A stretch of DNA of 64,000 nt from the IMG/VR virus record IMGVR_UViG_3300021466_000176; one strand, written 5' to 3'. This document shows, piece after piece, positions 26,423-37,846 of the stretch. Below the pieces are notes generated by a model that saw only the letters and a list, made by a program, of their open reading frames with translations, did no database searches and had not been told where the DNA came from. Origin of the DNA: a virus. Each line of letters opens with the position of its first letter. The stretch's first letter is position 1. A program made the position numbers and the translations under genes.

Positions 26423-26508
26423 GAGTTCGTGTCCGAGTGGTCTAAGGAGATCGATTCAAGCTCGATTAAGGGGTTAGCCCGACGTAGGTTCGAATCCTAC
26501 CGAACTCA
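26423..26508 (+). tRNA. tRNA-Leu(CAA)
   Basis: Full cloverleaf, long variable arm. Confidence 0.95.
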
Positions 26509-26516
26509 TCGGTTGA

Positions 26517-26602
26517 AGGCGCGTGTCCGAGTGGTCTAAGGAGGTCGATTTAAGATCGACTAAGGGGTTAGCCCGACACAGGTTCGAGTCCTGTCGCGCC
26601 TA
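26517..26602 (+). tRNA. tRNA-Leu(TAA)
   Basis: Full cloverleaf, long variable arm. Confidence 0.95.
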
Positions 26603-26605
26603 TGC

Positions 26606-26689
26606 GGACGTATAGGGAACTGGTGAAACCCGAGAGGCTTAGGACCTCTGCTTACAGAAGCTTTCCAAGTTCGATTCTTGGTACGTCCA
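26606..26689 (+). tRNA. tRNA-Leu(TAG)
   Basis: Full cloverleaf. Confidence 0.93.
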
Positions 26690-26701
26690 TTGCGGTTGAG
26701 T

Positions 26702-26786
26702 GGGGATATGCCCGAGTAGACTAAGGGGCCGCGTTGAGGGCGCGGTGGTGTTAGACCTACCCGAGGTGCAAATCCTCGTATCTCCA
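26702..26786 (+). tRNA. tRNA-Leu(GAG)
   Basis: Full cloverleaf, T-loop TGCAAAT. Confidence 0.9.
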
Positions 26787-26788
26787 TT

Positions 26789-26876
26789 GCCGCCCCAAGA
26801 GGATAGGTGACCTTCGCTCGACTGCTAATTGAGTTCCCTGAAATATGGATTCGGAGTTCAAGTCTCCGGGGCGGCG
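26789..26876 (+). tRNA. tRNA-Ser(GCT)
   Basis: Full cloverleaf. Confidence 0.9.
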
Positions 26877-26909
26877 TGGCACTTTCGAAAAGTGCCTGTC
26901 AAATGACGA

Positions 26910-26991
26910 GGTGGGGCAGACACAGGTGAATCGACTCGGCTCGAAATCGAGTGCCTTAGCGGGCTTAGGGGTTCGACTCCCCTCCCCACCG
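26910..26991 (+). tRNA. tRNA-Ser(CGA)
   Basis: Full cloverleaf. Confidence 0.9.
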
Positions 26992-27002
26992 CTTGCGATC
27001 TG

Positions 27003-27089
27003 GGTACTCTGTCCGAATCTGGTAAGGGACCTGATTTGAAATCAGGTTAACCCCGAAAGGGGGTCTCGGTTCGAATCCGAGGAGTACCG
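27003..27089 (+). tRNA. tRNA-Ser(TGA)
   Basis: Full cloverleaf. Confidence 0.93.
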
Positions 27090-27091
27090 CT

Positions 27092-27176
27092 GTCGAATCT
27101 GAGCATTGGTGCGCTCACTTCGTTGGAAACGAAGCGGCGATAAACTGCCTTGAGAGTTCGAATCTCTCATTCGACG
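27092..27176 (+). tRNA. tRNA-Ser(GGA)
   Basis: Full cloverleaf. Confidence 0.93.
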
Positions 27177-27207
27177 CTTTTAATATTTCACGGGTAGACC
27201 ACACTCT

Positions 27208-27510
27208 ATGGAGAATTTAGTAACAAACCAGTATGACACGTCAGCTATCATGTGTCCTGAATGTGGAGGGGGATACCTACATCGGGGGCGGGTTGAAGTA
27301 TTCTCACGTCATCGAGAAGATGCGGATGAGGGGACACATGTCGTGGTTGATGGAAAGGAAACGACAGTCGATAGTTCCTTGGATGGGAACGTAAGCTCTC
27401 GCCGGAGTAGTGTAAAGATCACATTCGAGTGTGAGTTCTGCCGGGGAGAGACACGCACACTACGTATCAGTCAACATAAAGGGAACGAGTTCGTGTCTTG
27501 GGACTATTAG
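27208..27510 (+). CDS. Small Zn-finger protein
   Basis: CPECGG ... CEFC. Confidence 0.7.
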   Translation: MENLVTNQYDTSAIMCPECGGGYLHRGRVEVFSRHREDADEGTHVVVDGKETTVDSSLDGNVSSRRSSVKITFECEFCRGETRTLRISQHKGNEFVSWDY

Positions 27511-27513
27511 AAC

Positions 27514-27687
27514 CTATTCTTCGATTACCTTGTGTCCTTGAATCTCGACGCTAACAGTCGATGATTCCCCTCCTCCAATGATCTGACCGTGTGAGTGCTC
27601 GGATACATCGTAGTCTGTCACTTCCCATCCTTTCGCTTCGGTTGCCTGTATCATCTCCTCGACTTCAGCGCGGGTCGTTTCGCTCAT
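27514..27687 (-). CDS. Small hypothetical protein
   Basis: 57 aa acidic ORF from ATG 27687. Confidence 0.55.
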   Translation of the reverse strand: MSETTRAEVEEMIQATEAKGWEVTDYDVSEHSHGQIIGGGESSTVSVEIQGHKVIEE

Positions 27688-27878
27688 ACTATCTACCGGA
27701 TCGGATGGCGGCCACACCGATCACATTTCCGTTTTCGCGGCGAACCATCCGTTGATTGGGCTTTCACCAGCGAACGAAGCGCCCGTCCGGGGATTATACG
27801 CTTTCCTACACTCCCAACACCGGTTCCAAGTTATTCAATATAGTAATATTTATCATTCAGTTCTGAGTGTGTGCATGT

Positions 27879-28007
27879 ATGTCAGTACTGGGCTCGATCC
27901 GATTTTACGCTGATTCCGAGGATATCGAATCTATCAAACAGAACGCGGAAGCAGCGGACCTATCGATCTCCGCGTACGTCCGATCACAACTCGAAGAGTG
28001 TGAGTGA
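27879..28007 (+). CDS. 42-aa ribbon-helix-helix (CopG/MobC-like) microprotein, not in ORF track
   Basis: MSVLGSIRFYADSEDIESIKQNAEAADLSISAYVRSQLEECE. Confidence 0.7.
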   Translation: MSVLGSIRFYADSEDIESIKQNAEAADLSISAYVRSQLEECE

Positions 28008-28161
28008 TAGCCCTTCACAAGTCACACAAATGCACATAGATGCACCCAAATGAGTAACGATACAATGATTCAACGACACAAAGATACACATAACTATTTC
28101 CCGGCGGACTAATGGGTTTAATACCGGAGTTTATTTAACTCGACGAAACGTGGGTGTTGAC

Positions 28162-36146: not shown

Positions 36147-36211
36147 TCCAACTGTAGAAAAGTTGGTTCAAAAGCGGTGCGTTGAATACGATCAGGGCGT
36201 TTACTGATCGT

Positions 36212-36439
36212 ATGGAGCACACGTTCCAGGAACCGCGTACGATCGCCGTTCTTCACGAGGTGTTCGAGGACAAAGGTGACCTCGGAAAATGGAAACAGCG
36301 GACCAGCACGATCGATACACGGACGATCATGATCGAGGAGGATACTCTGATCTTCCTCGGCGACGGGGAGTCCGGACAGGCCGTCCTCGTTGTCAGTAAG
36401 GAGAACTTCATCTCCGCTCATACTGACGGCGTGCGCTGA
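36212..36439 (+). CDS. Small hypothetical protein
   Basis: 75 aa. Confidence 0.55.
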   Translation: MEHTFQEPRTIAVLHEVFEDKGDLGKWKQRTSTIDTRTIMIEEDTLIFLGDGESGQAVLVVSKENFISAHTDGVR

Positions 36440-36485
36440 CCCAAAAGGTAGTTAACTGCTTGGTTCCCAAGTAGATACCAAGTAC

Positions 36486-36836
36486 ATGGTAGAAGATATC
36501 GACCTCGACGCAAATTTCAGTGATGAAGGTGGCGAGGTATCCGGATCAACGACCGTTCACGGCGTAGTTACGGGCGGGGTTCCGGATTCGATGGATGCTG
36601 CGCTTCAGGTAGAAATCGGAGGGGCGACGACGAACGTTGATATCTACGTCGAGGGACGAACGAGCCCGGATATCGGCTATGAGAACGTCATTACATCAAC
36701 CAACGTCTCGAATGGGTACTCCGATCTCCAGACGGGGATTGATCTCTCCGGATTGTACGACGTGCGGCTCCGGGTGGTCAACCAGGACGGGACGAACGAT
36801 GGATCGGTACGCGCGGTGCTGTCGGTATCCGGATAA
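36486..36836 (+). CDS. Hypothetical beta-rich acidic protein
   Basis: 116 aa. Confidence 0.65.
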   Translation: MVEDIDLDANFSDEGGEVSGSTTVHGVVTGGVPDSMDAALQVEIGGATTNVDIYVEGRTSPDIGYENVITSTNVSNGYSDLQTGIDLSGLYDVRLRVVNQDGTNDGSVRAVLSVSG

Positions 36837-36876
36837 CTTTAGAAAAGTTATTGTCAAAGGCGCTCGTCGTGAGCGT

Positions 36877-37128
36877 ATGGGTGCGAGTTACGAGGTAGAT
36901 GCGTTCGAGAACCAAGTGAACAATGCGTTCCAGGAGTCGATGCGGACGACATTCGCACTCTGGACTATCAAGCGTGCCTTGGAGATCGAGGACGCTGGCG
37001 GAAGCGTCGATTGGGAGTTGATAGAAGATAATGTGTGGGATGCGAATGAGGCATCCGGGTTCGCTGAAACGTACATCTCAGATGAGCACGGTGTTGTCGA
37101 GCGGTTCCGCGATATTGAAGGCGATTAG
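36877..37128 (+). CDS. Hypothetical protein; stop codon lies inside tRNA-Val(TAC)
   Basis: 83 aa acidic. Confidence 0.55.
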   Translation: MGASYEVDAFENQVNNAFQESMRTTFALWTIKRALEIEDAGGSVDWELIEDNVWDANEASGFAETYISDEHGVVERFRDIEGD

Positions 37129-37191
37129 ATCAATAGGTAGATCATCTCGCTTACATCGAGAAGGTTTCCGGTTCGAGTCCGGAATCGCCTA
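37119..37191 (+). tRNA. tRNA-Val(TAC)
   Basis: Full cloverleaf. Confidence 0.93.
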
Positions 37192-37192
37192 C

Positions 37193-37266
37193 TCCTATCA
37201 GGCCCCAATGGTGGGGCGCTCGATTTGTAATCGAGATTATGCTGGGTTCGATTCCCAGGGTAGGAT
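37193..37266 (+). tRNA. tRNA-Thr(TGT)
   Basis: Full cloverleaf. Confidence 0.9.
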
Positions 37267-37271
37267 CTCCA

Positions 37272-37345
37272 GGGCCAATAGATTAATTGAACAAATCGCA
37301 GGTCTTCTAAACCTGAAATTCGGGGTTTGAATCCCTGTTGGTCCG
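37272..37345 (+). tRNA. tRNA-Arg(TCT)
   Basis: Cloverleaf; D-loop lacks GG. Confidence 0.88.
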
Positions 37346-37346
37346 T

Positions 37347-37418
37347 TCTCGGATAGTGCGAACGGCAACACACTCCCTTGGTATGGGAGAGATACGGGTT
37401 CGAATCCCGTTCCGAGAT
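37347..37418 (+). tRNA. tRNA-Thr(GGT)
   Basis: Full cloverleaf. Confidence 0.93.
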
Positions 37419-37490
37419 TCGGCGGAGGCTGTTGGTGACCGACTCCCTCTTATATAGGGAACCGCGCGGGTTCAAGTCCCGCCCGCCGTA
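37419..37490 (+). tRNA. tRNA-Ile(TAT)
   Basis: TCCCT-CT-TAT-AT-AGGGA anticodon arm, good T-arm, U1:U72 mismatch and weak D-arm. Confidence 0.75.
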
Positions 37491-37493
37491 TAC

Positions 37494-37565
37494 GGACCGG
37501 AGACCCATCAAGATGGGTACTGGCTTTTAACCAGGAGGTAGCGGGTGCAAATCCCGTCCGGTCCT
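37494..37565 (+). tRNA. tRNA-Lys(TTT), atypical D-arm
   Basis: D-arm is a near-perfect hairpin without GG; other arms intact. Confidence 0.8.
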
Positions 37566-37574
37566 TGCGAAATC

Positions 37575-37649
37575 GGGTTGGTAGCATGGACAGGAAAATG
37601 TGCTTGGCCCTTAACCAAGAGATCCCGGGTGCAACACCCGGCCAACCTT
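37575..37649 (+). tRNA. tRNA-Lys(CTT)
   Basis: Cloverleaf, T-loop TGCAACA. Confidence 0.85.
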
Positions 37650-37650
37650 T

Positions 37651-37724
37651 GCCAGTGTGACAGAGTGGCCCATCGTCCCGGACAGCAGATCCGGTGTGCA
37701 TAGGTTCGAATCCTATCACTGGCT
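37651..37724 (+). tRNA. tRNA-Cys(GCA)
   Basis: Cloverleaf, A at position 33. Confidence 0.87.
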
Positions 37725-37773
37725 TCCGATTCGGGAGAACGCTCAATACCTTCCGGATCGTACGCAGAGCAGA

Positions 37774-37846
37774 GCCCGGAGAGAAGCAATGGTGCTTCGC
37801 CGTGCTGTTGACACGGAGATGCGAGGTTCAATCCCTCGACCGGGCG
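37774..37846 (+). tRNA. tRNA-Asn(GTT)
   Basis: Cloverleaf, 7:66 mismatch. Confidence 0.88.

Follow-up and report, generated by a model that had tools for sequence, protein, structure and literature searches.

The stretch of viral DNA analysed here, called the window below, is 64,000 nucleotides (nt) long and represents bases 66529-130528 of a 134,075-bp IMG/VR virus record (IMGVR_UViG_3300021466_000176; CheckV completeness 91%). It carries 35 transfer RNA (tRNA) genes for all 20 amino acids, every one on the + strand, arranged in two blocks within 11.4 kb; positions given below are those of the window. ARAGORN called 31 of these genes, and four more were taken from matches to Rfam RF00005 above the gathering score (34875-34949 CAT, 37194-37265 Thr-TGT, 37494-37565 Lys-TTT, and 37575-37649 Lys-CTT). 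A search of the whole 134-kb record found no tRNA outside 26422-37846, and an encoded CCA is absent after all 35 genes. Because the genomes of two haloarchaea yield 44-45 Rfam tRNA matches in 3.6-4.3 Mb, chance is of no concern for 35 viral tRNAs in 11.4 kb. All 35 are cloverleaf genes with sense anticodons, and five of them are weak members of the set: Ile-UAU, which scores 28.1 bits, under the 29-bit cut-off, and has a poor D arm; Ser-CGA, with an Rfam score of 28.1 bits; and Ser-GCU, Ser-GGA, and Asn-GUU, which were called by ARAGORN alone. An earlier note, written from the letters of this DNA, had listed exactly these amino acids and anticodons, all on the + strand and without a 3' CCA, with Leu-TAA, Arg-TCT, and Ile-TAT present and Arg-GCG, Ala-GGC, Pro-GGG, and Leu-CAG missing, and ARAGORN and Rfam together reproduce this list.

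Block 1 (26422-27177, +) consists of eight class II tRNAs separated by spacers of 0-33 nt, namely Leu-CAA (26422-26510), Leu-TAA (26517-26602), Leu-TAG (26606-26689), Leu-GAG (26701-26787), Ser-GCT (26788-26877), Ser-CGA (26910-26992), Ser-TGA (27003-27090), and Ser-GGA (27092-27177). Block 2 (32866-37846, +) holds 27 class I tRNAs and opens with His-GTG (32866-32937, with G-1 encoded at 32865), Asp-GTC (33008-33080), Tyr-GTA (33152-33225), Phe-GAA (33324-33396), Gln-CTG (33410-33484), Gln-TTG (33649-33725), and Glu-CTC (33848-33919). The next gene (33987-34074), which has a 19-nt insertion in the D loop, was left unnamed ('???') by ARAGORN; it matches the whole tRNA model at 49 bits, and its loop TTTTCAT identifies it as Glu-UUC. 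It is followed by Ala-TGC (34207-34280, with G3:U70), Gly-GCC (34356-34427), Gly-TCC (34511-34581), Val-GAC (34622-34692), Ile-GAT (34693-34767), and two CAT tRNAs, of which the one at 34875-34949 has A1:U72 and the one at 35052-35128 has G1:C72. Judged from the first base pair, the former would be initiator-like and the latter an elongator Met or Ile2 tRNA. The block continues with Pro-TGG (35365-35436), Arg-TCG (35983-36059), Trp-CCA (36072-36146), Val-TAC (37119-37192), Thr-TGT, Arg-TCT (37272-37345), Thr-GGT (37347-37418), Ile-TAT (37418-37491), Lys-TTT, Lys-CTT, Cys-GCA (37651-37724), and Asn-GTT (37774-37846). A tRNA remnant or tRNA-like piece is also present at 35186-35312 (+), downstream of the second CAT tRNA and ahead of Pro-UGG. 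Its T arm, GGTTCTCGGTTCGAATCCGAG, shares 95% identity with the Ser-UGA T arm, but an Rfam search gave no tRNA match for it at E<=1.

The make-up of the repertoire was compared with the 45-46 tRNAs each of Haloquadratum walsbyi J07HQW2 and Natrialba chahannaoensis. The viral set does not replicate a cellular one. All 15 U34 tRNAs are present in the virus, as are most G34 tRNAs, while C34 tRNAs, kept only where the split of a codon box demands them, are limited to Leu-UUG, Ser-UCG, Gln, Glu, Lys, Met, and Trp. Eleven anticodons found in the cells are missing (CGC and GGC for Ala; CGG and GGG for Pro; CCG, GCG, and CCU for Arg; CAG for Leu; CAC for Val; CGU for Thr; CCC for Gly), and each of these would read G/C-ending codons only, corroborating the bias away from GC-ending isoacceptors that had been noticed in the earlier note. 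Conversely, Ile-UAU is present in the virus and absent from both cells and from the halovirus HGTV-1. A viral tRNA is available for 62.5% of the viral codons by Watson-Crick pairing and for 93.4% by standard wobble, so that by keeping every U34 tRNA and dropping only 11 tRNAs for G/C-ending codons the set can read ~93% of the viral codons. Wobble leaves only GCY, CCY, and CGY uncovered. Four codon boxes have G or C at both of the first two positions, and the uncovered codons fall in three of them. It is in such boxes that a single U34 tRNA is likeliest to read all four codons; if it does so for Ala, Pro, and Arg, the set would be complete.

The GC content at third codon positions (GC3) is 0.60 in the virus (89 open reading frames, ORFs, of at least 150 amino acids), 0.56 in HGTV-1, 0.75 in Natrialba, and 0.41 in Haloquadratum, where the cellular values are approximate as they come from codon tables of the ORFs in ~100-150 kb per genome. 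Over Natrialba, the strongest viral enrichment is that of ATA, GTA, TTA, AGA, and CAA (log2 ratios of 2.66, 1.95, 1.81, 1.46, and 1.23, respectively), and there is a Watson-Crick viral tRNA for each of them, ATA being read by Ile-UAU. GCT and AGG are also enriched and lack a Watson-Crick viral tRNA. The idea that the tRNAs supplement codons of a lower-GC element is thus supported against the high-GC Natrialba, over which A/U-ending codons with cognate tRNAs are enriched, and would fail against Haloquadratum, compared with which the virus is the GC-richer one.

The viral tRNAs look functional, as far as this can be judged from their predicted folds. All 35 anticodon stems have 4-5 pairs, and among 154 stem pairs compared with the Haloquadratum tRNAs of the same anticodon, 75 are identical, 73 are changed on both sides and still paired, 4 differ on a single side, and 2 have lost their pairing. 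The identity marks used in charging have been retained as well, including G-1/C73 of His, G3:U70 of Ala, C1:G72 of Tyr, and A1:U72 on one CAT tRNA; only cases clear by eye were used for the discriminator bases, as shifts of the ARAGORN boundaries disturb an automatic comparison. The double changes that keep the anticodon stems and the retained charging marks imply that these are maintained RNAs, not decaying copies. Mean identity to the cellular tRNA of the same anticodon is 0.69 for Haloquadratum and 0.68 for Natrialba, compared with ~0.90 between the tRNAs of these two cells, which belong to different orders, and only Asp-GUC (0.90) and Pro-UGG (0.82) appear recently cellular. Mean GC content of the tRNAs is 0.555 in the virus and 0.61 in the cells. 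Recent internal duplication was considered as an origin and rejected, as isoacceptor pairs are no more alike in the virus than in cells.

Several of these tRNAs depart from otherwise universal positions. Four lack U33, with C33 in Gln-CUG, Glu-CUC, and Lys-CUU and A33 in Cys-GCA, whereas no tRNA without U33 was found among ~90 genuine cellular tRNAs of the two haloarchaea; the Cys-GCA loop, CAGCAGA, is identical in the Cys tRNA of HGTV-1. The TTCRA rule of the T loop is violated in six viral tRNAs, with U55G in three of them and C56U in the remaining three. U55G also occurs in three T loops of HGTV-1, which belong to other tRNAs, and neither cell has such a loop. In addition, Asn-GUU has G8. 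Anticodon loops are identical between the two cellular orders in 29 of 32 cases, whereas loops differing from both cells number 22 of 34 in the virus and 20 of 35 in HGTV-1. Of the 108 loop positions flanking the anticodons, 26 are changed from the cellular state in the virus and 26 in HGTV-1; 18 of these positions are common to both viruses, and 12 of them carry the same base (Fisher p 8e-9).

The genes just upstream of the window identify the carrier. They encode a sheath (PHROG E 1.7e-88), a portal (1.1e-49), a tape measure protein, and a capsid protein. The nearest database relative of the sheath is that of HGTV-1, at 39.7% identity, followed by those of other haloarchaeal myoviruses; the capsid protein is nearest to that of Halorubrum virus Hardycor1 (31%), and the HGTV-1 capsid was not matched. 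Asp and Glu make up 17.5% of the proteome residues in the 134-kb record, an acidic share typical for salt-in halophiles. The IMG/VR record, the PHROG virion matches, and the haloviral relatives of the sheath all point to a tailed virus (Caudoviricetes), and judged by these genes the carrier is a new haloarchaeal virus of the myovirus type, distant kin of HGTV-1 and probably lytic. The window had been read in the earlier note as an element with conjugation-type ATPases, which implies a plasmid-like conjugative element, and the virion genes on the same record correct this reading. The ATPase at 3-1565 is a weak AAA_10/HerA-like match (E 2.8e-8; 33.6 bits), the second candidate, at 50243-51118, is a TraB/PrgY-family protein, which is not an ATPase, and with a virion module on the same contig we rejected a conjugative element with a type IV secretion system; this judgement was made on the ATPase and virion evidence, and no search was aimed at relaxase or other families of that system.

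We found no long relatives of the virus in IMG/VR, the phage collection, or the metagenome contigs scanned. Both tRNA blocks were compared with 50,697 phage records by megablast and blastn, giving no meaningful match, not even to HGTV-1. Scans of IMG/VR with a 239-amino-acid protein encoded at 24555-25274 (+), its two-sequence alignment, the sheath alignment, and the capsid protein retrieved only HGTV-1 and 4-20 kb fragments without tRNAs, and the metagenome scan gave three contigs, each <4 kb, at 58-67% identity and all without tRNAs. The gene upstream of block 1 has an 87%-identical protein on a 5.5-kb ENA contig, which probably stems from a close relative.

To our knowledge, HGTV-1 has since 2013 been without a counterpart among archaeal viruses in its full set of tRNAs, and a 2026 paper reportedly still treats it as unique; the virus described here is the second archaeal virus with a tRNA set for all 20 amino acids. 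The comparison with HGTV-1 drawn in the earlier note is right, and the anticodon repertoires of the two are nearly the same. HGTV-1 (Halogranum tailed virus 1; Hagravirus, Halomagnusviridae; NC_021328) has a genome of 144 kb, compared with 134 kb here, and both are large haloarchaeal myoviruses with lower GC content than typical hosts. Its 34-36 tRNA genes cover all 20 amino acids with a mean GC content of 0.56, like those of this virus (PMC8651126, PMC13532342). Also alike are the four Leu tRNAs without CAG, the four Ser tRNAs, the single U34 tRNA for Pro, the lack of CNN anticodons in most four-codon boxes, the small ORFs among the tRNAs, and at least one tRNA with an insertion. Both genomes encode Ro60/TROVE, ribonucleotide reductase, ThyX, Tmk, and PolB; these are among the tblastn matches to HGTV-1 (E<1e-5), which comprise 14-15 of 150 ORFs and also include baseplate J and the sheath.

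The two viruses differ in other respects. Their tRNA sequences are ~0.68 identical, and their gene orders are different. Between the two, Ile-UAU, Glu-UUC, and a second CAT tRNA are found only in this virus, and Arg-GCG and Thr-CGU only in HGTV-1. Unlike the tRNA genes of HGTV-1, those found here form two tight same-strand blocks split by an insert with TnpB and a clustered regularly interspaced short palindromic repeat (CRISPR) array. Membership in the genus Hagravirus was ruled out by the 14-15 matching ORFs out of 150, the sheath identity of 39.7%, and the lack of a capsid match. RtcB and an Rnl2-type ligase are absent from the record by family and similarity searches, and neither an archaeal CCA-adding enzyme (family search) nor one like that of HGTV-1 (tblastn) was found, so that maturation of the tRNAs must rely on host enzymes; HGTV-1, which has RtcB, Rnl2-type ligases, and a CCA-adding enzyme, is different in this respect (PMC8651126). 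The LysRS of HGTV-1 likewise has no tblastn similarity in the record, by a test of similarity only.

Two further groups are instructive. The tRNA-rich phages (mycobacteriophage cluster C1, T5, and others) resemble this virus in being large lytic tailed viruses with ~30 or more clustered tRNAs. Their anticodon loops are unlike host loops, and it has been proposed that such tRNAs are insensitive to nucleases (PMC10264068, PMC11555353). They infect bacterial hosts with known nucleases, whereas the present case is archaeal and its changes also affect the universal U33 and U55. Cellular haloarchaea share with the virus the lack of an encoded CCA, G-1 of His, C1:G72 of Tyr, and an initiator-like A1:U72. 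They differ in that their 45-46 genes are dispersed and include every CNN and GNN isoacceptor, and in that no genuine gene departs from U33 or TTCRA; the virus has 35 clustered genes, 11 missing anticodons, and an extra Ile-UAU.

The layout of the array offers some hints about its expression. The leader of block 1 (26396-26421, +), which may act as a promoter judging from its sequence, has a TATA-like TTTGATA ~25 nt upstream and a palindrome, CTTTCGAAAG, adjoining the first tRNA, and a T-rich stretch (TTTTAATATTT) directly follows the block. The stretch 26881-36848 contains short palindromes of the ACTTTTAGGAAAAGT type, which follow the pattern ACTTT(T)AG(G)AAAAGT or its complement; 13 of the 16 copies in the genome are in the tRNA region, compared with 2.9 expected from shuffles. 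Most lie 2-5 nt off tRNA ends or right behind stop codons, and some combine as intergenic inverted repeats of ~70 nt. The palindromes would probably mark transcript ends or cutting sites; a search of IMG/VR with the palindrome pattern gave no match. Small ORFs of no assigned function lie among the tRNAs of block 2 (35487-35888, 133 amino acids; 36486-36836; and others). By eye, T comes next after most of the predicted tRNA 3' ends, in many cases as TTGCG or TGCG, which may be a signal for tRNase Z or the trailer, with the qualification that ARAGORN ends may shift by one base.

The 5.7-kb segment between the blocks (27178-32865), which has a lower GC content (0.47 at 28-30 kb), contains small ORFs, TnpB, and the CRISPR array, and looks like a later insertion into a formerly continuous tRNA array. 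TnpB (29974-31218, -; Pfam Cas12f1-like_TNB and OrfB_IS605) is only ~37% identical to copies in two haloarchaeal genomes. The CRISPR array (32059-32606, +; leader at ~31900-32058), which lacks cas genes, has eight repeats, four of them near-perfect 37-nt copies (GTTGCAACCCAAGAAAACCCCGAGAGGGGATTGAAAC) and the following four decaying, and seven spacers, each 33-43 nt long, none of which matches the genome of the virus itself or HGTV-1. A 277-amino-acid ORF at 32009-32842, on the opposite strand, is unlikely to be a real gene. An exact 24-mer of the repeat has no match in the species genome collection, and no match with up to three mismatches was found in 401 Halobacteria genomes. A loose repeat pattern retrieved mostly cyanobacterial and purple-sulfur arrays, and a single orphan repeat in Haloquadratum walsbyi J07HQW2 (L018 4411-4446) is related to it and has a leader resembling that of the viral array.

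A Ro60/TROVE protein with a vWA domain (20879-22603, +), among the few gene products in common with HGTV-1, is 38% identical to gp239 of that virus, and an RlaP-family (RNA-repair-associated Pol-beta-type) nucleotidyltransferase (49353-50201, -) is the sole enzyme of an RNA-repair type found. In bacteria, both families have been connected with responses to RNA damage. The ribonucleotide reductase (14855-19303, +; 1482 amino acids) contains an intein with a LAGLIDADG homing endonuclease inside, and the HGTV-1 enzyme, 42% identical, has no intein. The 239-amino-acid protein used in the scans above, with a weak hint of ATP-grasp R2K, is the best conserved with respect to HGTV-1 (58%), and copies at 67% identity are on the short metagenome contigs Ga0102936_1010676 and Ga0102939_1007674. 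A subtilase (22931-24463, +; 510 amino acids; Peptidase_S8, E 1.5e-34) has a C-terminal extension that Pfam leaves unannotated.

We consider it probable, with some room for doubt, that the array is a codon-matched, nearly self-sufficient tRNA supply of a large haloarchaeal tailed virus. In such a supply, the tRNA genes would most likely be transcribed as arrays from the + strand; the tRNAs would be released by RNase P and tRNase Z of the host, and its CCA-adding enzyme would complete their ends. The tRNAs could then serve A/U-ending codons, which the virus would use more than a GC-rich host does, and viral translation might be sustained when the host tRNA pool drops or is damaged late in infection. 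The analysis demonstrates the genes with their intact folds, the composition of the set, the codon usage of the virus, and the viral nature of the carrier; that the tRNAs are expressed and charged, what kind of host they serve, and how they benefit the virus are inferred. The host of HGTV-1 is GC-rich, and the same reasoning on codon supply has been made for that virus (PMC13532342; PMC8651126). For the present virus, the direction of the codon mismatch is taken by analogy with HGTV-1, and several observations weigh against this interpretation. The CRISPR repeat points to no host, and its sole relative is in the low-GC Haloquadratum; if that were the host (GC3 0.41), the virus would be the GC-richer partner, the argument from A/U supply would fail, and only the self-sufficiency half would stand. 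The approximate nature of the cellular codon tables adds to this uncertainty. Moreover, GCT is strongly enriched in the virus, yet there is no viral G34 tRNA for it, and the virus also carries tRNAs for codons that any host reads well (GAC, TTC, AAC, TAC, CAC). Finally, several tRNAs are off universal positions and Ile-TAT and Glu-TTC are structurally doubtful, implying that not all 35 need be active.

The unusual positions raise the possibility, which we think rather unlikely, that the set replaces host tRNAs cut or sequestered by defences such as VapC-like anticodon nucleases or CreT-type toxins, with the viral copies altered where those factors would recognise them and so surviving; a replacement of this kind can act jointly with codon supply. 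The set spans all 20 amino acids and thus goes beyond rare codons, the anticodon loops are changed in most viral tRNAs and largely constant between the cells, many of the changes coincide with those of HGTV-1, and the losses of U33 and of the T-loop rule recur in that virus and never in the cells. Ro60/TROVE in both viruses and the RlaP-type nucleotidyltransferase in this one would fit as well. The CreT toxin sequesters tRNA-Arg(UCU), and Arg-UCU is in the viral set. There is also a bacterial precedent in the proposal that phage tRNAs are altered to escape host tRNases (PMC10264068, PMC11555353). However, we found no report in the literature consulted of a tRNA-targeting antiviral defence in haloarchaea, and the loops (~25%) are no more diverged than the tRNA bodies (~32%), which suggests that general fast drift explains most of the changes. 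The changes from G37 to A37 are consistent with AT-biased mutation, the states common to HGTV-1 were possibly inherited and not selected, and the record has none of the RNA ligase, RtcB, and CCA-adding enzymes of HGTV-1.

That many of the tRNA genes are not for decoding seems improbable to us. They would then be kept as cutting signals for RNase P and tRNase Z that free small mRNAs, or be decaying passengers, and the small ORFs between the block 2 tRNAs, the palindromes adjoining tRNA ends and stop codons, and the low-scoring or aberrant tRNAs agree with this. A cutting signal, however, needs the acceptor and T arms only, whereas the anticodon stems are kept here by 73 double changes against 2 breaks, the identity marks for charging are retained, and the anticodons form an ordered, non-redundant set for 20 amino acids that is near that of HGTV-1. 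We give hardly any credence to an array on a conjugative plasmid-like element or to a captured cellular tRNA island: the weak ATPase match and the TraB/PrgY-family protein would speak for the former, but a full virion module is on the same contig, and no near cellular tRNA set exists among the cells compared, as the low mean identity (0.68) shows next to the 0.90 between two haloarchaeal orders. A codon-matched supply remains the explanation we favour.

This virus is a second, independent case of a kind known from one isolate, HGTV-1. A second virus with matches to ~1/10 of the HGTV-1 genes and yet nearly the same repertoire makes a comparison possible for the first time. Features common to both, such as the retention of all U34 tRNAs, the loss of CNN tRNAs and of the GNN tRNAs of GC-rich boxes, the same altered anticodon loops, and Ro60, are unlikely to be accidents of one genome, and they provide concrete targets for testing why viruses carry tRNAs. 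The variants at U33, U55, and C56 offer specific and cheap hypotheses on archaeal tRNA recognition. As a speculative extension, to which we attach little confidence, large haloarchaeal myoviruses might hold an old, virus-specific decoding set reshaped at positions left unchanged in cells (U33, U55G, C56U, and G37A), which would escape tRNA-cutting or tRNA-dependent defences and be independent of host modification enzymes. If this were true, the reshaped viral tRNAs would indicate, for the first time, an arms race centred on tRNA in Archaea.

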